Below, piece after piece: positions 2,715 to 10,333 of a stretch of 17,506 nt of DNA (positions are counted from its first letter, which is position 1; every line of letters starts with the position of its first letter). Position numbers and translations under genes: made by a program. Under the pieces are notes generated by a model. It was not told the DNA's origin and searched no databases. It saw nothing but the letters and a program-made list of their open reading frames with translations. The stretch is from a virus (lineage: Duplodnaviria > Heunggongvirae > Uroviricota > Caudoviricetes), in IMG/VR virus record IMGVR_UViG_3300029873_000373; one strand, 5' to 3'.

Positions 2715-2972
2715 TCACGCAGTAAACTCCTTCACCAGCGTTTCAAACTGGCTTACCTGTCCTTCCAGTTCCGCCACGCAATCCACCAGCTCATCCACCG
2801 CCTTTTGTGTGCGGTGTTTTGCCTGCAGCAGATCACGAAGCGCCGGAGTAAGCTGCTTGCGGAGCGTATCTTTTTTCACGCTCGTTTTTTCCATCTGTTC
2901 AGCACAACGAAGCATCTCCTGCGCCTGCCGACGAAGTTGTTCCGGTGAAACAGTGATTGTTCTGTTGTTCAA
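2715..2972 (-). CDS. Hypothetical small phage protein (85 aa)
   Basis: ORF with TTG start overlapping the helicase stop (TTGA); GGAG 8-9 nt upstream; helical-looking sequence; function unknown. Confidence 0.45.
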   Translation of the reverse strand: MNNRTITVSPEQLRRQAQEMLRCAEQMEKTSVKKDTLRKQLTPALRDLLQAKHRTQKAVDELVDCVAELEGQVSQFETLVKEFTA

Positions 2973-4369
2973 AATAAACGCTCCGTTTTACTGCCCGACA
3001 TGCGGTTATTGCTGTATCTGCGCGGATTGCCCGGCGTCATGGGTGTGGAAAGAACCCGGGCACTCTCCTGGTCCACAGGCAGAAAATGTCCGTTATGAAA
3101 ACGCCGGTAAATGGTCCCGAGTGTGCCATTACGCTGTTTCGTGATGTTGATTTCTGCTATGCCTCTGGCCTGTGTATCCGGGTTATACACCTCATCCCTG
3201 TAAAGCATCAGAATGATGTCGGCATCAGCCTCTATTTCCCCGGAGTTTTTCAGGTCTGAGTTCATGGGACGTTTATTGGGTCTGGATTCCACGCCTCGGG
3301 AGAGCTGGCTCAGAGCAATCAGCGGGAAACCGCCGGATTTTGCCAGGCTTTTAAGTCCCTTTGAGATTTCCCCCACAGCAAGGTCGTGACGCCCCGTGCT
3401 GCGGGTTTTAATCAGACCGAGGTAATCGACCACCACCAGCGCCGTTTCCGGGTGTTTCATCCGGTGGTGCTTCGTGGTTGCACATATCTCATCAATGGTC
3501 AGGTTTGCCTGATCCACCATCCAGATATTACGCCCCGTCATTCGTCCCACGCCCTGCGAGAAACGCGCCCAGTCTTCATCTTCAAAACGGGCAACAGACT
3601 TAAGACGGGATACCGGCATTCCACCGGCAGCAGACACCATACGTTCACCAATCTGGATGTTCGCCATCTCCATGGTGAACAGAAGCACGCCATGCCCCTG
3701 CTCAGTCACCTTGTCGATGATGTCCAGCGCAAGTTCGGTTTTCCCCATCGAAGGACGGGCGGCAATGAATACCAGGTCACCGGGCTCCATACCGCCCGTT
3801 TTTGCGTCCAGTTCATCAATACCGGTCATCAGCGCCCTGGATTTCTCCAGTCCCTGATTGCGGCATTCAACACGGTCGACCACTTCCGGAAGGACATCAT
3901 CAATGTGAACCGGCTGAATGACGCCCTTTCCGGTCGACAGTGAGGCCATCATGTTCTGCACATCCTTCAGGGCATCCTCGGCTGCTTCACAGGTATACGC
4001 ATCACGTAAATTCTGTAATGCTTCAGTCAGTGTTTTTTCTGCATCGCGCAGTGCGGCATTGCGCCGCAACGCTGCGACATAGTGCTCCAGTGAAGACTTC
4101 ACCCAGGTTTTGCGTCCGGTGTCGGTAATCACCGGGGCAAGTTCCGGCATCTCATTGCACAGCAGTACGGGGTCAATGACGCCGGATATGCGAGCCTGTC
4201 TGCAAATCCCCGCGTAAATATCCCGGTACTGACGCACAAAAAATACATCCGCCGGAAGTGTGGCCAGAATATCCATCACTTCCGGATCGGCCCCACGCAG
4301 AAAAAACGCACCGATGACAGCGCCTTCCAGGTCATCGTTACGCCATGCCGGGGTGTTCTGGCTGGTCAT
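2969..4369 (-). CDS. Replicative DNA helicase, DnaB family (phage-encoded)
   Basis: 466 aa; Walker A in DnaB context (FIAARPSMGKTELALD); N-terminal DnaB-like helical domain; start ATGA-overlaps the stop of the upstream loader gene. Confidence 0.9.
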   Translation of the reverse strand: MTSQNTPAWRNDDLEGAVIGAFFLRGADPEVMDILATLPADVFFVRQYRDIYAGICRQARISGVIDPVLLCNEMPELAPVITDTGRKTWVKSSLEHYVAALRRNAALRDAEKTLTEALQNLRDAYTCEAAEDALKDVQNMMASLSTGKGVIQPVHIDDVLPEVVDRVECRNQGLEKSRALMTGIDELDAKTGGMEPGDLVFIAARPSMGKTELALDIIDKVTEQGHGVLLFTMEMANIQIGERMVSAAGGMPVSRLKSVARFEDEDWARFSQGVGRMTGRNIWMVDQANLTIDEICATTKHHRMKHPETALVVVDYLGLIKTRSTGRHDLAVGEISKGLKSLAKSGGFPLIALSQLSRGVESRPNKRPMNSDLKNSGEIEADADIILMLYRDEVYNPDTQARGIAEINITKQRNGTLGTIYRRFHNGHFLPVDQESARVLSTPMTPGNPRRYSNNRMSGSKTERLF

Positions 4370-5265
4370 GCGGCAACACCTCCGATACGAGAACGGTAGC
4401 TGGGCCAGTTAAACGACAACCAGTTGCGCCCGCCATCGGTGATCCTGTCGGCAATCCGGGGACTGATGAACGCCCACAATTCTTCCGGTGAAAGGTTGCT
4501 GATCAGGATAGTTGGCAAAATACCCTCATACCGGGCATTGATAATTTCCTGCAAAATGGCCATTTCAGCCGCACTGCCAAACTGAACGCCGACTTCGTCG
4601 ACAATCAGCAAATCCAGTGACGCATAATGCTCAATGACGTCATCCGCTGTTTTTTCACTGTCATTCCGCCAGCAGTTTTTCACAGCCCGGGTAAGGCGCA
4701 TCACGTCGGTGATCTCCACACTGGCCAGATAGTTACGGATGATGTGTTTTGCCATTGATACCGCCAGATGATTTTTCCCGGTACCGCAACTGCCGGTCAT
4801 AACAAGACTGGTACCGTTCTCCAGCATATCTGGCCAGTTCTCCGCATAGCGGCGACAGGCCGCAAGATTTCTGGCTGCGTCAGGATTAACCTCCAGATAA
4901 TTATCAAACTCGCAGTCCCGAAAACGCAGAGCAATTCCGGCGTTATCAGTCAGTTCTTCCGCCTTGAGGGACGACAGTTCCATGGTCAAATCACTGGCCT
5001 CAGCGATCAAGCAGTCAGGGCAGCATGAAATTTTTTCTCTGTCCTCGCCATTACGATCGATCCACACCAGTATATGCGTACGATATTTACCGTGTTTTTC
5101 GCAATATCCGCGACCTTCACGCATCAGGCAGGAACGATAAGGCCATGGCTTTTCGCCCTTCTGAGCAAATGCAATCTCTGCCCGTAACTCATCCATTTCT
5201 GCCCGTAACTCATCCATTCGCGCCTGTAGTCTTGTTTGTTTCTCACGTTGGTCAATCGTCATCAT
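4366..5265 (-). CDS. DnaC-like helicase loader / IstB-type AAA+ ATPase
   Basis: Walker A (TGSCGTGKNHLAVS) and Walker B (LLIVDEVG). The track starts at GTG 5274, but ATG 5265 has better SD spacing (GAGGTG-N6-ATG). Contains a 21-bp perfect tandem duplication (MDELRAE x2). Confidence 0.85.
   Translation of the reverse strand: MMTIDQREKQTRLQARMDELRAEMDELRAEIAFAQKGEKPWPYRSCLMREGRGYCEKHGKYRTHILVWIDRNGEDREKISCCPDCLIAEASDLTMELSSLKAEELTDNAGIALRFRDCEFDNYLEVNPDAARNLAACRRYAENWPDMLENGTSLVMTGSCGTGKNHLAVSMAKHIIRNYLASVEITDVMRLTRAVKNCWRNDSEKTADDVIEHYASLDLLIVDEVGVQFGSAAEMAILQEIINARYEGILPTILISNLSPEELWAFISPRIADRITDGGRNWLSFNWPSYRSRIGGVAA
5177..5218. repeat. Perfect 21-bp tandem duplication (TCTGCCCGTAACTCATCCATT x2) inside the DnaC-like gene
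   Basis: Two identical adjacent 21-mers at 5177-5197 and 5198-5218; in frame (7-aa repeat MDELRAE). Confidence 0.9.
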
Positions 5266-5275
5266 CGCTGTCACC

Positions 5276-6268
5276 TCAGAATGTCAATTTGTTACTGGAT
5301 TTACCGAATTTGTCAGACATGGCTCCCAGGCCAGCCAGGACATCGACCTGTCGCTGTCGCCCACCTCCGTGAGCGGCTGGCTGTTGCCAGTAATCTTCGA
5401 AGTGACGATCGGGTCCAAAGAACGTCGCAGCCTGCTTCACGAACTGTGTGCCGGTATTTCCTGTAGCACGTACCCAGGCGGCATACCGCTTCACGCCATC
5501 AAGCATGGTCTCCGGTTTTATTCCCTCCCTGATACGGGCTTTCCAGGCTTTGAAGGCTGCTGACTTGGAATTGCCACCAGCACGTTTGGGATATTCCTGC
5601 CAGGCCTGTTCAAATTCCGGTGAATATTCCTGTCGGGCAGAACGCGCTGGCGCAGACGCGTCAGCGGATGCATCAATAGTGTTTTTAGTCTCCGTTGTAA
5701 TCTCTGTAGTAATCTCTGTATTTGTATCAACATTCGGCGTATCCCCTGTTCCGTTATGACGTCGGGGGGTGTTCCGTTTTAACGTAATAGCTGTATCGCT
5801 GATTGCATTATTGCTGTTACTTTCTGGCGAAACAGAAGAAGGTGTGGTGATGGCCGCAATTGCCTGTGGGTTGATCCCGACAAACAAAATATTGCTGCAT
5901 TTCACCCCATCGAGCATTTCCACCGTGCGTAAATCCAGAGTAATAAACCCTGCATCGCGCAGACGCTTCAGCGCATCTGCGGTTTCCCTTTTCCCGAAAC
6001 CAAACTGCTCAGCAAACGCCTGGTAGCTTCTTTGCAGTTTGTCGCCCTGAAAACGCTTGCGATATCCCAGCAACGCTCCGGTGTGCTCATCCCTGACCTC
6101 TGTCGGGCGGTACCAGTAAACGATCTCTGAAAGCAGAGCGATAGCCGTCGCATCCGGACGCCCACTGGGTAGTCGAATATATTTCCACCAGTTCGCAGGT
6201 GTAACATTGCCGGAAATATTAATTTGACCAATAGCCATAACTTCCGGTGTGGGGGCGTAACGGCTCAT
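5276..6268 (-). CDS. Phage replication initiator (lambda O-like replisome organiser)
   Basis: 330 aa; strong SD AAGGAGGT before ATG 6268; N-terminal winged-helix-like domain; central low-complexity linker (TEITTEITTE) encoded by iteron-like DNA repeats; immediately upstream of the DnaC-like and DnaB-like genes. Confidence 0.65.
   Translation of the reverse strand: MSRYAPTPEVMAIGQINISGNVTPANWWKYIRLPSGRPDATAIALLSEIVYWYRPTEVRDEHTGALLGYRKRFQGDKLQRSYQAFAEQFGFGKRETADALKRLRDAGFITLDLRTVEMLDGVKCSNILFVGINPQAIAAITTPSSVSPESNSNNAISDTAITLKRNTPRRHNGTGDTPNVDTNTEITTEITTETKNTIDASADASAPARSARQEYSPEFEQAWQEYPKRAGGNSKSAAFKAWKARIREGIKPETMLDGVKRYAAWVRATGNTGTQFVKQAATFFGPDRHFEDYWQQPAAHGGGRQRQVDVLAGLGAMSDKFGKSSNKLTF
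5697..5720. repeat. Iteron-like 12-bp tandem direct repeat (GTAATCTCTGTA x2) inside the initiator gene; candidate origin element
   Basis: Two perfect 12-mers at 5697-5708 and 5709-5720 with related flanking partial copies; located in the inter-domain linker of the O-like gene, as lambda ori is in O. Confidence 0.45.
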
Positions 6269-6564
6269 ACAACCTCCTTCCGCGGCATGAGAATTGTGTA
6301 GCCACGCGCAGGTTGTAGTCTGGCTTTTGCATCAATAGTAAGCGTTGCAATTTTTCGGATATGAAGATAACCAGCTCTTTCCAGTGCCAGGGTTTCCCTG
6401 AATATCGCTTGCTTAGAACAACAGCAGAAATCAGCAAGCACCTGATGATCAATAACTCTCTCGCCTTCACCGTCTGAAGAACCCGACATCAAAACACGCA
6501 ACATAATCAGGCGCTGAATCGGGTTATCGAAAGCACATCCGCACACAAACTGAAAACAGTTCAC
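6265..6564 (-). CDS. Hypothetical early protein (99 aa), possible winged-helix DNA-binding
   Basis: GTG start with SD GGGAGGTG; GTGA overlap with the upstream gene and ATGA overlap with the initiator gene. Confidence 0.5.
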   Translation of the reverse strand: MNCFQFVCGCAFDNPIQRLIMLRVLMSGSSDGEGERVIDHQVLADFCCCSKQAIFRETLALERAGYLHIRKIATLTIDAKARLQPARGYTILMPRKEVV

Positions 6565-6785
6565 GCCACACCTCCCAGACGCTTAAACATTTTTCCAGAC
6601 AGAAATACCGCCAGAGGGTAACTGATGGTGTAGCTACGCCCCTGTAGTTCGCACACGACTTTCTGGCTTTCAGCGTTGACTAGGCAAACCCGCAGAACGT
6701 GACCGTTGCTGGTGGCGAACCACTGCCCCACACGGGGGCAACGGTTGTATCGGTGATACAGGGAATTAACGATGTGGCGGATCAT
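6561..6785 (-). CDS. Hypothetical small phage protein (74 aa)
   Basis: ATG 6785 preceded by GGCGGAGGTG; translationally coupled on both sides. Confidence 0.45.
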   Translation of the reverse strand: MIRHIVNSLYHRYNRCPRVGQWFATSNGHVLRVCLVNAESQKVVCELQGRSYTISYPLAVFLSGKMFKRLGGVA

Positions 6786-6976
6786 GGACGCACCTCCGCC
6801 GTAGTTACGTATTTAACCGGGCTACCTTTCATTGAGATGGTTTCACACATCTCTGCCGCTTTCAGTTCCGCTGTTTTTCTGGATTTATAGCGACGGTGCC
6901 AGACAGATACATCCGTGCGAACTGATACATCGTTTCTGTATTCCGTAGTGGAGATGATGATTTCGTAACTAATCAT
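6782..6976 (-). CDS. Hypothetical small phage protein (64 aa)
   Basis: ATG 6976 preceded by AAGGAGGT; ATGA overlap with the Rha-like gene stop. Confidence 0.45.
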   Translation of the reverse strand: MISYEIIISTTEYRNDVSVRTDVSVWHRRYKSRKTAELKAAEMCETISMKGSPVKYVTTAEVRP

Positions 6977-7833
6977 GGGCGAACCTCCTTGTCAGAACCA
7001 TTCAGCCTGGAATCAACAAGTGCAGCGCCAAAAACAGCATCACCAACACGGTCGTACAGTTTGCTAGCCAGCGGAGATTCAACGGCCTTAAGCATTGGAT
7101 AAAGCTGGCTTGTCCAGATTTGATGGATTTCACGCAAATGCAGGTATACGCCTCTGGCGTTTCGTGCGACAGCTGACATATCAGACGCATCGGCACCTGA
7201 TAAACTCTTCTCCATCAGGTTAAAGGCGTTGATGTATGCCTCTTTGAACCGGGCAGCACGTTTACCAGTGAAGCCCATGGCAAGAAACGCAAAACCGTCG
7301 CGGGTGATTTGGTAACAAGGGAGCTTGCGTGTACCACCGTTCGGTTGATTTACCGAAATCGATGTCTCCGCAAAATTGCGGGCACAAAACTCAGGGGAAC
7401 AATCCAGAGTGCGGATCTTTTTCAGCACATCGTCATGACGCTTGGAGAAGAAGTTGGCAACAGCCAAAGAAGTGGTAACGGCCTGGCCGTTGTCAATGGT
7501 GATTTCAGGTTGAGTGAGGGCTGGGATCGTAGCCATGATGGCAGCCTCCGTTGACAGTGAAAAACTTCCACCACCGGAAACGCCAATTTCACTGGTGGTG
7601 AACTGGACGGGGTTGGCGTAACCGGCGTCAACGGAGACCGGCGCACCTTTCGGTGCCCCCGCCCAGCCCACCATAATCTGGATGTGAGCAAATGCGGACG
7701 ATAAAAAAGACGCTGGCGCGTCATACATCGCCGTTGACAATTTCAGGACGCCAATCCCGGCACCCGCTTTATAAGGTGCGGAGACAGTGTAACGTCCCGG
7801 AATTGCAGAATCAATATGCTGGTGGCGGATCAT
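6973..7833 (-). CDS. Rha-family phage regulatory protein with a ~99-aa N-terminal module of unknown function
   Basis: Rha-like core ITIDNGQAVTTSLAVANFFSKRHDDVLKKI ... TRDGFAFLAMGFTGKRAARFKEAYINAFN; ATG 7833 has SD GGGAGGTG. An in-frame internal ATG at 7536 with SD GGAGG lies exactly at the module/Rha junction. Confidence 0.7.
   Translation of the reverse strand: MIRHQHIDSAIPGRYTVSAPYKAGAGIGVLKLSTAMYDAPASFLSSAFAHIQIMVGWAGAPKGAPVSVDAGYANPVQFTTSEIGVSGGGSFSLSTEAAIMATIPALTQPEITIDNGQAVTTSLAVANFFSKRHDDVLKKIRTLDCSPEFCARNFAETSISVNQPNGGTRKLPCYQITRDGFAFLAMGFTGKRAARFKEAYINAFNLMEKSLSGADASDMSAVARNARGVYLHLREIHQIWTSQLYPMLKAVESPLASKLYDRVGDAVFGAALVDSRLNGSDKEVRP
7537..7833. repeat. Copy 1 of a ~300-bp duplicated coding module (N-terminal domain of the first Rha paralog)
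   Basis: Near-identical DNA to 8193-8492, e.g. shared CCCGCTTTATAAGGTGCGGAGACAGTGTAACGTCCCG and GACGATAAAAAAGACGCTGGCGCGTCATA. Confidence 0.85.
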
Positions 7834-8492
7834 AGGTGCACCTCCCGTTGATTACGACGGAACGCGGAGTGACCCTGGACGGTTTCAGCCTCATGGAATG
7901 CTTCAATACAGCTCTCGTAGTACCGCATTGTGCGCAGACTTAACCCAAGCTGAAGCATCATCAGACCATCAAGGGTGATGTAATAACCACGCAGGGAGTC
8001 ACCGTAGATGTGATAAGTACCCGGTATGAAATTGCGGGTAAAAAACCCGCGTGAGCAGTTCAGATACTCGATTTTGTCAACGATGTTCTGGTGCATGCGC
8101 TTGAAATGGCAGGCAACATGCAGGGAGAAAATAACGGCCTTGCCGTTGACGACTTCGATTTTTAGGAATGGGGAAGTTAGGACAGTAGCCATGATGGCAG
8201 CCTCCGTATGCAATGGATAACTTCCACCACCGGAGCTGCGAAACTCATGGGTGGTGAACTGAACAGGGTTCGCAGTACCGGCGCATACGGAAACCGGCGA
8301 GCCTTTCGGCTCCCCTGCCCAGCCCACCATAATTCTGGCGTGCGTGAGCGCGGACGATAAAAAAGACGCTGGCGCGTCATATATCGCCGTATGCAATTCC
8401 GGGCTGCGACCCCCGGCACCCGCTTTATAAGGTGCGGAGACAGTGTAACGTCCCGAAATTGCAGAATCAATATTTGGTCTTGAAATGATCAT
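7830..8492 (-). CDS. Rha-family regulatory protein paralog (divergent Rha domain) carrying the same N-terminal module
   Basis: N-terminal 100 aa about 75% identical to the adjacent gene; Rha-like IEVVNGKAVIFSLHVACHFKRMHQNIVDKI. ATG 8492 has no SD; internal ATG 8192 has GGAGG and may be the true start. Confidence 0.6.
   Translation of the reverse strand: MIISRPNIDSAISGRYTVSAPYKAGAGGRSPELHTAIYDAPASFLSSALTHARIMVGWAGEPKGSPVSVCAGTANPVQFTTHEFRSSGGGSYPLHTEAAIMATVLTSPFLKIEVVNGKAVIFSLHVACHFKRMHQNIVDKIEYLNCSRGFFTRNFIPGTYHIYGDSLRGYYITLDGLMMLQLGLSLRTMRYYESCIEAFHEAETVQGHSAFRRNQREVHL
8193..8492. repeat. Copy 2 of the ~300-bp duplicated coding module
   Basis: Same as above; differences are substitutions only, many at third codon positions of the minus-strand frame. 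Confidence 0.85.
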
Positions 8493-8576: not shown

Positions 8577-8601
8577 AGCCGGGTTACTCCCGGCTTTTTT
8601 T
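8577..8601 (+). terminator. Intrinsic-terminator-like hairpin plus T7 run, oriented for the plus strand, between minus-strand genes
   Basis: AGCCGGG-TTACT-CCCGGCT followed by TTTTTTT (8595-8601), abutting the stop of the 8601-9308 gene; on the minus strand the hairpin is preceded, not followed, by the A/U run. Confidence 0.5.
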
Positions 8602-9308
8602 CACCGCTGCCAACCAATAACCTGAAATAACCCCATTTTCGGGTGATACCAGCGAGTCCCTCGCGGTTCTGCTTCCTCCATAATCCGATAAAAAGCAGCC
8701 ATAAACGGTTCCACAGCAACAATTGCGCGACGTGACAACAATCCGTCCGGCGTCATGAACTCATGGGTGTCTGTAGGAATCTGATAGGCGTTCACCAGAT
8801 TGCGGCATTTATCATCTGACAAACCGGTTTTTGCTTTCAGTTGGCGATATCCGGCATAGCCCTCACGAATAGTGCCCTTTTTAATTTGCTCGACTGTTTC
8901 AGCAACGTGGCTGACTTTTTCTTCCACCTGAGTGATCCGTTTCTGTTGGCGAACGGCTTCAAGAGCCATCGCGGCAACCATTTCGATTTCGCTCATTGGC
9001 TTACGGATCTGTTCTTCCAGTTCGCGCCAGCGATCTACCAGGCGAGCTGTGAATTCAGGACAGAGCTGTGCGACGACAATGATGCTGTCGCGCTTACCTC
9101 GTTCACCTTCGAATACATACGCGCTAGAAAATCGGCGAGGCCCAAGTGATTGTTTATTCTCAATTTCCACAGTCTGTGGAAATTGGATGATTCCCTTTTT
9201 AGCCAGTGTTTCAATAGTTCTCTTAACACTATCTGGTCGGCTTCCCACCAGCTCTGCGATCTCAACGCTGGTCATGGATGCTTTGCCGTTAAAAATTGCG
9301 GTGTTCAT
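8601..9308 (-). CDS. Rha-family phage regulatory protein (antirepressor-like)
   Basis: 235 aa; N-terminal MTSVEIAELVGSRPDSVKRTIETLAKKGII fits the Rha-domain pattern; coiled-coil-like middle; SD AGGAGA before ATG 9308. Confidence 0.7.
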   Translation of the reverse strand: MNTAIFNGKASMTSVEIAELVGSRPDSVKRTIETLAKKGIIQFPQTVEIENKQSLGPRRFSSAYVFEGERGKRDSIIVVAQLCPEFTARLVDRWRELEEQIRKPMSEIEMVAAMALEAVRQQKRITQVEEKVSHVAETVEQIKKGTIREGYAGYRQLKAKTGLSDDKCRNLVNAYQIPTDTHEFMTPDGLLSRRAIVAVEPFMAAFYRIMEEAEPRGTRWYHPKMGLFQVIGWQR

Positions 9309-9549: not shown

Positions 9550-9622
9550 GATACTTTGTTATCCAACGATGTTAACCATAGGAACCCAAAGTATCAAGAA
9601 ATTCTGTTACTTTAGTATCAAC
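9550..9622. promoter_or_regulatory. Rightward-operator/promoter-like region (divergent PR/PRM analogue) with repeated operator motif
   Basis: Motif CAAAGTATCAA at 9587-9597, TTTAGTATCAAC at 9611-9622 and inverted GATACTTTG at 9550-9558. Candidate minus-strand promoter: -35 TTGATA (rc of 9592-9597), 17-bp spacer, -10 TAACAT (rc of 9569-9574). Confidence 0.5.
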
Positions 9623-9643
9623 AGCCATGAGAGGAGAAGAAAA

Positions 9644-10300
9644 ATGAAGTCTTTAGGTGAACGTCTCATCAACGCACGGCAAAAAGCTGGGTTAACACAA
9701 GATGCGTTGGCTAAAAAAGCTGGGGTCACCAGAGTTGCAATAAGTAAAGCCGAGCAAGGCCTTACAAAAAGTTTCAACGGTGACACCCTTTTTAAAGTTG
9801 CAGCTGCACTGCGGTGTTCACCGCAGTGGCTTCAGAACGGAGATGAAAAAGATAAGCATTGGGAAAATAATGTTAAGAGCTGCCCACAGAGAGACACAGC
9901 ACACTCTTACCCTGTAATTAACTGGGTTCAGGCAGGATTATTCGCAACTTCTGGTGATGACTACAACATGTATGATCAGGATAATTGGAGGCATTCTGTA
10001 AAATACGCTGGTGAGAGGGGGTTCTGGCTGGAAGTGCACGGAGACTCAATGACTTCGCCCGTAGGAATAACATTTCCTGAAGGAATGTCGATCCTTGTCA
10101 ACCCAGATAAAGAAGTTTTTTCAGGGTGTTACGTCATCGCCAGAAAAAAATCCACCAATGAAGCAACATTCAAAAAATATATTTCTGACATGGGAAAGGC
10201 GTTTCTAAAGCCCCTTAATCCACAATATCCAATCATAGAAATGGACAATGATTGCGAAATAGTAGGTGTTGTGGTTGATGCCAGATGGGATATTTTCTGA
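9644..10300 (+). CDS. cI: CI-like prophage repressor (XRE-family HTH plus LexA/S24 peptidase-like C-terminal domain)
   Basis: 218 aa; SD GAGGAGAAG before ATG 9644; HTH LINARQKAGLTQDALAKKAGVTRVAISKAEQG; S24 catalytic context GDSM ... ATFKKY; divergent from the early-right operon. Confidence 0.9.
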   Translation: MKSLGERLINARQKAGLTQDALAKKAGVTRVAISKAEQGLTKSFNGDTLFKVAAALRCSPQWLQNGDEKDKHWENNVKSCPQRDTAHSYPVINWVQAGLFATSGDDYNMYDQDNWRHSVKYAGERGFWLEVHGDSMTSPVGITFPEGMSILVNPDKEVFSGCYVIARKKSTNEATFKKYISDMGKAFLKPLNPQYPIIEMDNDCEIVGVVVDARWDIF

Positions 10301-10305
10301 CCAGA

Positions 10306-10333
10306 CACAAAACACAAAACACAAAACACAAAA
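10306..10333. repeat. Perfect heptamer tandem repeat (CACAAAA)x4
   Basis: Four exact 7-bp units directly after the cI stop codon and before the leftward operator motif. Confidence 0.9.

Follow-up and report, generated by a model that had tools for sequence, protein, structure and literature searches.

The replication initiator gene of an Escherichia coli prophage contains two perfect, adjacent 12-mers, and the question that they raise is whether they mark the origin of replication and, if so, which part of it they form. We analysed them in a 17,506-nucleotide (nt) stretch of tailed-phage DNA (Caudoviricetes; IMG/VR virus record IMGVR_UViG_3300029873_000373), referred to here as the window, which is 100% identical to a prophage of E. 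coli O55:H7 RM12579. A first-pass annotation had read the 12-mers as iteron-like repeats within a gene-internal origin like that of phage lambda. Judging from sequence, the region very probably does mark a gene-internal origin laid out like lambda ori, and the prophage origin probably lies at about positions 5681-5791. The 12-mers, however, occupy the place of lambda's AT-rich region and not that of lambda's iterons, and they belong to an element that follows unrelated iteron families in the phages of several bacterial phyla and is conserved as nucleic acid rather than as peptide.

Two perfect 12-mers in the linker-coding region

On the plus strand, positions 5697-5708 and 5709-5720 both read GTAATCTCTGTA. 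Along the gene strand and in codon register, the units are ACAGAGATTACT (5719->5708), ACAGAGATTACA (5707->5696) and a degenerate ACGGAGACTAAA (5695->5684, 8 of 12 positions), with the codons ACA GAG ATT ACT / ACA GAG ATT ACA / ACG GAG ACT AAA and the peptide TEITTEITTETK. Tandem Repeats Finder reports the array as 5689-5720, with a period of 12, 2.7 copies and 90% matches. Degenerate flanking copies had been described; one flank does carry such a copy, the third unit, but the other is the conserved connector ACAAAT (5725->5720). As the annotation had stated, the 12-mers encode TEITTEITTE in the inter-domain linker (residues 184-193 of the 330-amino-acid initiator, within a segment that AlphaFold2 predicts to be disordered), and the unit has no dyad symmetry.

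A perfect adjacent pair of 12-mers is expected about 0.001 times per 17.5 kb of random sequence (17506 x 4^-12). Because the window holds a second perfect tandem, the 12-mer tandem taken alone shows only replication slippage, and the evidence against chance is the comparison with other genomes, not the window by itself. This second tandem is a 21-nt TCTGCCCGTAACTCATCCATT x2 at 5177-5218, on the minus strand in the N-terminal part of the DnaC-like loader gene, where it is in frame and doubles seven amino acids. In a copy-number census drawn from near-identical E. coli viral contigs, the perfect 12-mer unit was present in 1, 2, 3, 4 or 5 copies between invariant flanks, and the window's own state, two copies, was by far the most frequent. 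The 12-mers therefore behave as a coding variable-number tandem repeat, with in-frame copy differences between otherwise near-identical alleles.

The element abuts the last iteron in phages of several phyla

In phages of Proteobacteria, Bacillota, Cyanobacteria and Chloroflexota, the initiator gene has a motif of the form ACA GAG AnT ACT after its last iteron, and the phages that carry this motif differ in their iterons and in their helicase-recruiting domains. A first genome scan, baited with the peptide motif, yielded 80 loci, from Serratia, Yersinia, Xenorhabdus, Marinomonas, Acinetobacter, Bacillus, Lysinibacillus, Clostridium and Lachnospiraceae as well as Caldanaerobacter, Desulfosarcina, Chloroflexota and one archaeal metagenome-assembled genome (MAG). 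Because the motif had itself served as bait, we repeated the retrieval with peptide patterns confined to the N-terminal domain (N-domain) of the initiator, and found that 77 of 80 loci (46 distinct contexts) carry ACAGAGAnTAC directly after the iteron array; the remaining loci comprise one degenerate variant and two truncated contigs. Viral contigs were also scanned for exact DNA matches to ACAGAGANTACTACAGAGANTAC, which gave at least 80 loci, 80 of which were read. Among the matches listed, all 80 have the motif in frame (T-E-x-T) inside an initiator-sized open reading frame (ORF), preceded by many kinds of iterons. The N-terminal parts of these proteins form one loose single-linkage superfamily (73 of 75), which includes members left unaligned by direct pairwise BLAST and which shares a hydrophobic-x-Q-hydrophobic-x-Y-W helix. 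Their C-terminal parts fall into at least 11 unrelated clusters, one of them homologous to the C-terminal domain (C-domain) of lambda O, and Pfam recognizes DnaB_2 (DnaD-like) in one member from Bacillus and DUF6017 in one from Lachnospiraceae.

Searching GenBank phages with a 42-nt DNA query gave 130 records, which include phages of Acinetobacter, Bacillus, Staphylococcus, Klebsiella, Pseudomonas, Burkholderia, Vibrio, Synechococcus and Geobacillus and Shiga toxin (Stx) phages; among the matches listed with annotation, the gene was always labelled as an initiator, 'O', 'DnaD-like', 'primosomal' or, occasionally, 'transcriptional regulator' gene. In a sensitive DNA search, Acinetobacter phages matched the window precisely over 5680-5786, and these phages encode a homologous N-domain, followed by GTACGTTAGAACGTAGGAGGGTG iterons and then by ACAGAGACTACTACAGAGAATACTACAGAT. 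Stx2_EH2201, which has another N-domain and other iterons (of the GGTTTCCC..CCGCGG type), carries the repeat ACAGAGAATACA ACAGAGATTACT TCAGAGAATACT ACAGAG between its iterons and its C-domain. At the protein level, T184 and E185 never vary, and T187 and T191 hardly do, in an alignment of 17 homologous proteins that includes other N-terminal domains.

The spacing between the motif and the iterons is equally regular. The core of the last iteron ends 5-9 nt before ACAGAG, and that of the penultimate iteron 28-30 nt before it. An automatic search for the nearest palindrome often chose the penultimate iteron or an inter-iteron palindrome, and 24 of 64 contexts lacked a perfect 5-bp arm; the distances still cluster at 5-9 and 28-30 nt. 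The element abuts the last iteron whatever the iteron sequence or the C-domain.

Relatives of the initiator occur outside phages. Plasmid relatives from Vagococcus and Deinococcus have iterons together with degenerate motif copies. Large plasmids of intracellular bacteria or cyanobacteria (L329, L331 and L332) have the N-domain at the head of much longer proteins, of 500-680 amino acids (in L331, gene 274-1872); one of these genes is the first of its record, another is annotated 'DnaA', and no in-gene iterons are obvious. These proteins are probably plasmid initiators with the origin elsewhere. A MAG contig labelled Candidatus Syntrophoarchaeum (L069; NODE_11, 39 kb) encodes a bacterial-type initiator N-domain and contains iteron-like repeats and ACAGAGACTACTACAGAGACTACTACAGAA; the contig may have been binned wrongly, or it may belong to a virus or plasmid whose host range is unexpected.

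Synonymous sites of the motif are fixed

Across 45 distinct contexts, which span Gammaproteobacteria, Bacilli, Clostridia, Chloroflexota and Desulfobacterota, the successive codons of the motif are ACA (45 of 45), GAG (44 of 45), AnT (n = A, T or C), ACT (40 of 45), ACA (43 of 45) and GAG (43 of 45). Synonymous third positions are fixed, whereas the nonsynonymous second position of the third codon is free, so that the residue is I, N or T, and elsewhere S. Invariant residues of the N-domain provide an internal control in 20 distinct genes: there, Glu is encoded by GAA in 11 and GAG in 9, and Thr by ACC in 9, ACT in 7, ACA in 3 and ACG in 1, with codon entropies of 0.9-2.4 bits. In the motif of the same 20 genes the counts are ACA 20/20, GAG 20/20, ACT 18/20, ACA 20/20 and GAG 20/20, and ATT and AAT are the only codons used for Ile and Asn. 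Elsewhere in these genes 37% of Glu codons are GAG, and the loci range from 30 to 52% in G+C content (GC). The motif is also kept, after each phage's own iterons, in Burkholderia phage DC1 (65% GC), Synechococcus phage Ssp-JY37 (57%) and Staphylococcus phage 37 (33%).

We also compared codon use within the window's own subfamily (11 genes, 26-70% identity), as the share of the commonest codon at conserved residues. This share is 0.51-0.63 over amino acids 1-135, 0.78-0.88 over amino acids 151-195 (window 5684-5818) and about 0.6 thereafter, and the raised middle stretch indicates that the iterons and the element form one zone constrained at the DNA level. Together, these comparisons show that strong purifying selection acts on the element in several bacterial phyla, at the level of the nucleic acid and not of the peptide, and that its sequence itself, not its composition alone, is selected (30-65% GC).

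The iterons lie next to the 12-mers

A direct-repeat search of 5000-6600 identified TGTTCCGTTATGACGT (5747-5762) and TGTTCCGTTTTAACGT (5770-5785), spaced by 23 nt and identical at 14 of 16 positions (repeat family D5). With a third, degenerate unit they make up an iteron array at 5723-5791, built of 22-24-bp units with a partly palindromic dyad core, ACGTTAAAACGG (CGTT..AACG). On the gene strand, the third iteron is followed by AAT and then by the 12-mers. Iteron 1 is invariant in E. coli variants down to 93% identity, and its position and core correspond to those of the TACGTTGAAACGTA iterons in the Serratia, Yersinia and Xenorhabdus relatives. At the homologous position, relatives at 38-70% protein identity (Salmonella/Citrobacter-type viral contigs, Serratia, Yersinia, Xenorhabdus and Providencia) have three to five clearer copies, each a (C/T)-rich spacer plus TACGTTGAAACGTA, and the last iteron, equivalent to iteron 3, is clearer in relatives L165-L168. 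Across relatives the clearer copies number 3-6; lambda has four.

Across lineages the iteron sequence changes together with the N-domain, and specificity is probably set by the 22-24-bp dyad repeats. The 12-mers are neither specific to a cognate DNA-binding domain nor do they co-vary with it: one 12-mer accompanies many iteron families, dissimilar N-domains and at least 11 kinds of C-domain. Since iterons must match their cognate initiator and the 12-mer follows unrelated iteron families, we do not regard the 12-mers as iterons, and the array at 5723-5791 offers better ones.

The element coincides with a local minimum of helix stability

The least stable 30-bp segment of the gene is 5695-5725, at -1.15 kcal/mol per step against a mean of -1.43 (+2.6 standard deviations), and GC is 0.37-0.40 over 5660-5759. 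Short direct repeats, the 2.7 copies of the 12-mer that begin 6 nt past the last iteron, adjoin the iteron array at this local helix-stability minimum.

RNA folding of 5650-5800 predicted no structure (z-score 0.21, with the motif unpaired), and a permissive Rfam search of 5200-6400 returned just a chance snoRNA match (19.8 bits against a gathering score of 90 bits). A promoter and terminator scan gave nothing at the element. By inspection, a DnaA box was rejected (TTATCCACA does not match TTACTACAG), and so were DnaA-trios, a sigma-70 promoter, a Shine-Dalgarno-like pause and MazF-type ACA/UACAU sites. The DnaG trinucleotides CTG, CTA and TTA are present but too common to be meaningful.

Comparison with lambda, P22 and other origins

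Ori-lambda comprises four 18-bp iterons and a 38-bp AT-rich sequence inside O, at 39034-39160 (PMC3349717). In the lambda record, annotated iterons 1-4 (39034-39118) are directly followed by ACACAAAAGACACTATTACAAAAGAAAAAAGAAAAGATTATTCGTCAGAGAATTCT, and the rep_origin annotated within P22 gene 18 consists of iterons and then ACAAAAGACAATAT ACAAAAGACAATAA ATACAAATACC. The window resembles both phages in that the origin would lie in the initiator gene between the regions that code for the N- and C-domains: iterons and element (5681-5791) correspond to amino acids 160-196 of 330, which come after the N-domain (1-135) and ahead of the C-domain (from about 203). As in lambda and P22, dyad-symmetric iterons are adjoined on the C-domain side, at the same relative position, by a low-stability region, and downstream genes provide a loader and/or a DnaB-type helicase. 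The AT-rich regions of lambda and P22 contain two tandem ACA-initiated, A-rich units (ACAAAAGAC...) where the window has ACAGAGATTACT x2; on the coding strand these are ACAAAAGACACTATT and ACAAAAGAAAAAAG in lambda, and in P22 the two units quoted above. An alignment sets the window units in register with those of lambda and P22, and a Geobacillus unit, ACAAAGACTACT, looks intermediate. Just beyond its AT-rich units, lambda has TCAGAGAATTCT, which matches ACAGAGAATACT at 10 of 12 positions. The lambda-like arrangement proposed in the first-pass annotation was present in every relative examined, with the element between the N- and C-domains beside the iteron array; it is the role given to the 12-mers within it that has changed. 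The window differs from lambda and P22 in that its initiator lies outside the recognizable lambda O Pfam family, its iteron sequence is unrelated, and its flanking element is the 12-mer ACAGAGAnTACT, which has 33% GC, is not an A-tract and is conserved base for base far outside lambdoid phages.

Published work offers an analogy in function. Two iterons and the AT-rich region are enough for unwinding, and O proteins bind this AT-rich region as single-stranded DNA (PMC7466680). Once open, the region is contacted by O, P and DnaB, and the exact sequence of unwinding elements matters, oriC and RK2 using repeated 13-mers (PMC5043065). oriC, with three 13-mers, and RK2 oriV resemble the window in having short direct repeats of exact sequence beside an initiator-binding array; their repeats are contacted single-stranded by initiators (PMC5043065), which for the window element may serve as an analogy only. 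The Stx phages 933W and P27 are likewise lambdoid E. coli prophages with iterons and an AT-rich region inside O, and their O proteins bind the iterons and the single-stranded AT-rich DNA (PMC7466680). The same source gives 933W and P27 iterons (ATCCCTCAAAACGAGGGA) and an AT-rich region that are both of the lambda type, whereas the phiP27 sequence in GenBank (AJ298298 / NC_003356) matches the window gene over its C-terminal half only. The phiP27 gene under this match is annotated 'hypothetical protein' or 'helix-turn-helix domain-containing protein'.

The window element is translated, in contrast to oriC and the DnaA-trios, and by inspection it is unlike GATCTnTTnTTTT or the TAG/TAA trios. DnaA-trios, too, are short repeats beside an initiator-binding array; their sequence matters and they are contacted single-stranded. 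In the RepA_N plasmid replicons of Gram-positive bacteria, such as pAD1 and pSK41, the rep gene carries the origin repeats in its middle; they are bound by the winged-helix N-terminal domain of the protein, and a host-specific C-terminal domain recruits the replication machinery. RepA_N differs from the window initiator in protein family and in its repeats (TAGTARRR in pAD1).

Module junctions at the edges of the element

DNA homology of the window to Stx phages ends at 5719/5720 and that to phiP27 and PhiR49_2 at about 5678-5680; these points are the two edges of the element. The C-domain DNA is 92-99% identical to that of Stx-converting phages, phiP27 and PhiR49_2, whose N-terminal halves differ, and Burkholderia phage DC1 carries the window's C-domain too. 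The C-domain is a separately exchangeable module. In the opposite direction, P0039 equals the window protein through TNTEITT and then continues into a DUF6017 domain. The element travels with the iteron and N-domain side and marks the exchange point.

The same join is seen in all of the metagenome proteins P0039-P0042, which are identical to the window initiator up to it. The DUF6017 type is found also in a Lachnospiraceae element (L031), beside a ParB-like gene, and these proteins suggest that enterobacterial and Firmicute-type replication modules have been exchanged at the 12-mer. The E. coli prophage initiator P0091 and its relatives (532 member sequences) have an HTH_36/GntR/PaaX-like N-terminal domain and no TExT motif. 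The P0091 linker has peptide repeats of its own, DPSDSEPSKSEPSES…DPSDSGKN, and another DNA repeat array may lie there. In the lambda record NC_001416, two 'misc_recomb' features fall within GATTATTCGTCAGAG (L457 558-567 = lambda 39157-39166), the stretch just beyond the AT-rich region that is most like the ACAGAGAAT unit. The points are 39157/8 and 39165/6, in GATT|ATTCGTCA|GAG, and the record carries no note on which hybrids they refer to.

The initiator gene and its surroundings

The coordinates of the features discussed here are collected in Table 1. The initiator gene matches phrog_270 'replication initiation protein' at E = 4.6e-78, is named 'hypothetical protein' or 'replication protein' in RefSeq, and had no match in Pfam or NCBIfam. 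It did not fall into the lambda O family in these searches: phrog_270 is its best PHROG, and 'O-like' PHROGs match weakly and over partial regions (E = 6e-7 and 8e-5). The protein begins with a DNA-binding domain, continues in a disordered linker that the origin sequences encode, and ends in a helical C-domain. In an AlphaFold2 model built on an enterobacterial alignment, amino acids 140-212 are disordered (predicted local distance difference test score, pLDDT, 26-35), the C-domain is a confident helical bundle and the N-domain is poorly modelled (pLDDT 30-66). The N-domain is 39-68% identical to homologues from Acinetobacter, Bacillus, Lachnospiraceae, Desulfosarcina and Chloroflexota. A PDB profile search gave it marginal GntR/YvoA winged-helix matches only (E = 0.02 or worse), and its predicted helix-helix-helix-strand-strand order, itself of low confidence, suggests a winged helix. 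The N-domain is presumed to bind the iterons, and the C-domain, which matches phrog_1701 'DnaD-like helicase loader' and phrog_26426, is presumed to recruit the helicase loader or the helicase.

Table 1. Positions of the candidate origin elements and of the replication genes in the window
Feature	Position	Strand	Basis
Conserved element, ACAAAT-ACAGAGATTACT-ACAGAGATTACA-ACGGAGACTAAA-AAC	5681..5725	-	Synonymous sites frozen across phyla; position; low stability
Iteron 1, GCTATTACGTTAAAACGGAACA, dyad core CGTT-TT/AA-AACG	5770..5791	-	Repeat family D5; relatives
Iteron 2, CCCCCCGACGTCATAACGGAACA	5747..5769	-	Direct repeat; E. coli variants; relatives
Iteron 3, degenerate, proximal to the 12-mers, GGGGATACGCCGAATGTTGATACA	5723..5746	-	22-24-nt register with iterons 1 and 2
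Two possible further units, highly degenerate (…GATACA, …GTAACA), weak	5792..5838	-	Register and shared 3' ACA only
Replication initiator gene, 330 amino acids	5276..6268	-	ORF list; translation; phrog_270
N-domain coding region, amino acids 1-135	5864..6268	-	Homologues; weak profile matches; predicted secondary structure
C-domain coding region, about amino acids 203-330	5276..5660	-	DNA identity; PHROG matches; AlphaFold2
DnaC/IstB-like AAA+ helicase loader gene, next downstream	4366..5274	-	Pfam IstB_IS21 4e-14; phrog_50 'DnaC-like helicase loader' 1e-87
DnaB-family replicative helicase gene	2969..4369	-	Pfam DnaB_C 1e-73; TIGR00665 3e-92

The genes around these encode a repressor, Rha/Ash regulators, RusA, a DUF968-family protein (not NinG) and a methyltransferase, which places the locus in the early-right region of a lambdoid prophage. 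Three Rha/Ash-family regulator genes stand in a row (6973-7833, 7830-8492 and 8601-9308) between the immunity region and the replication genes, and the matching RM12579 prophage has only two at the corresponding place. A 99-amino-acid ORF (6265-6564) overlaps the initiator gene by 4 nt at its start codon, and its match to phrog_4617 'replication initiation protein' is confined to positions 1-93 of 223; this ORF may be what is left of another initiator type, or a detached N-terminal part of one. At 10305-10333 the heptamer ACACAAA is repeated perfectly (x4.1), beginning 5 nt past the stop of the LexA/CI-like repressor gene (9569-10300). Within the initiator gene, the copies of a 20-nt direct repeat of 90% identity, GCGCAGACGCGTCAGCGGAT / GCGCAGACGCTTCAGCGCAT, lie 307 nt apart at 5650-5669 and 5957-5976 and flank the origin region. 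Some alleles have a 6-nt deletion (CCAGCG) adjoining the copy at 5650-5669.

Discussion

On the strength of its position and conservation, we think that the element is a sequence-conserved DNA-unwinding and helicase-entry region that is read sequence-specifically by a conserved partner, and we put the probability of this a little above even, at roughly 0.55. We are much more confident that it is a functional signal in the nucleic acid, whatever its kind, than we are of the unwinding mechanism. In such a mechanism, initiator dimers would bind the iterons and distort the DNA, and the adjoining 12-mer array would melt. One strand would then be held sequence-specifically, either by the initiator N-domain in a single-strand-binding mode or by the helicase-loading complex, and the C-domain would bring the DnaC-like loader and the DnaB-like helicase, the products of the next two genes, onto the bubble. 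The TEITTE peptide would be a passive disordered linker, its sequence dictated by the DNA.

Several observations weigh against this proposal. Origin activity, unwinding and binding are all deduced from position and conservation. The 12-mer unit, at 33% GC, is only moderately AT-rich, and ease of melting cannot explain conservation base by base, so that a sequence-specific reader must be assumed. The only protein part common to all carriers is the loosely related N-terminal winged-helix superfamily, and the carriers' helicase loaders differ (DnaC-like, G39P-like or lambda-P-associated). The family-wide stability profile peaks at the motif too, but aligning the loci on the motif itself accounts for part of this minimum. 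Since one to five copies are tolerated, the length of the element is not critical, and its likeness to the lambda and P22 units rests on the eye and a short alignment, short of demonstrated homology. Plasmids of Nostoc (L329), Megaera (L332) and Protochlamydia (pPNK, L331) have the N-domain without the motif, and P0091, from E. coli prophages, joins the window's C-domain to a different N-domain and lacks the motif; neither protein module therefore strictly requires the element.

Among other explanations, that of the 12-mers as iterons, duplex sites bound specifically by the initiator's N-domain, has in its favour that they are direct repeats in the initiator gene at a domain boundary, as in lambda, and that the N-domain family and the motif usually co-occur, which makes a conserved domain on a conserved site conceivable. 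We regard it as very improbable nonetheless, because the 12-mer is found beside dissimilar N-domains (Stx phage L002, P0070, P0082, Staphylococcus phage 37 and Burkholderia DC1), because a separate dyad array of 22-24-bp period adjoins it and changes with the N-domain, and because it lacks the dyad symmetry of the superfamily's iterons and its copies drift between one and five in near-identical prophages. That same drift, the predicted disorder of the encoded segment and the other in-frame perfect tandem in the window (5177-5218) would all fit a slippage-prone, low-complexity tract with no DNA function that codes for a flexible Thr/Glu-rich linker. Such a tract should have free synonymous sites and conserved residues, and the opposite is seen (33-65% GC; residue I, N, T or S); the spacing to the last iteron is also fixed, and of the explanations considered here we find this one the hardest to credit.

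Frozen codons fit a constraint on the mRNA as well as one on the DNA, for example a site of processing or regulation, or a translational pause during which the nascent N-domain could bind the iterons in cis; from the end of the N-domain to the motif there are about 45-60 codons, which would be roughly the position of the ribosome once that domain has emerged. This is improbable, in our view: no RNA structure is predicted (z-score 0.21), no Rfam family or, by inspection, Shine-Dalgarno likeness was found, tRNA pools vary across the host phyla, and the fixed 5-9 nt to the last DNA iteron would go unexplained. A somewhat better case, although still an unlikely one, can be made for an element kept mainly as a homology patch for the exchange of initiator modules by homologous recombination. 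Homology breaks at both of its edges (5719/5720 and about 5678-5680), P0039 switches to DUF6017 after TNTEITT, at least 11 C-domain clusters share the motif, and the lambda recombination points fall within GATT|ATTCGTCA|GAG, the stretch most like the motif. However, selection for future recombination would not be strong enough to keep about 27 nt frozen across phyla, any conserved sequence would equally be expected to collect breakpoints as a side effect, and the fixed iteron spacing is again unexplained. A role in exchange is compatible with an unwinding and helicase-entry region as its consequence rather than its cause.

We also entertain, more tentatively and with the odds somewhat against it, a broader proposal: the ACAGAGAnTACT repeats may be a sequence-specific, near-universal core origin element of phages with an initiator and a DnaB-type helicase, whose single-stranded or distorted form is read by an O/DnaD-like winged-helix surface or by the loading complex, and which serves as a joint for module swaps, even across phyla. 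In the searchable literature we found no description of the element, its 18-mers, TEITTEIT/TENTTEIT or DUF6017, with an earlier account in older lambdoid work being possible; for gene-internal phage origins that literature held lambda and Stx work and general reviews only.

These results reassign the repeats of the initiator gene, with the 22-24-bp dyad units presumably giving specificity and the 12-mers forming a shared neighbouring element. Origin-opening regions are usually called just 'AT-rich', and here there is a defined 12-nt unit, conserved against codon bias from 33 to 65% GC. If it is an unwinding or helicase-entry site, something conserved must read its sequence, and the path from opening by iterons and initiator to helicase hand-over becomes testable. 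The motif is a simple sequence signature for phage and prophage origins, and the element offers a mechanism by which initiator modules could be exchanged to give mosaics. Should the near-universal reading be true, thousands of phage and prophage origins would be locatable from sequence, and studies of origin opening would have one defined DNA ligand.

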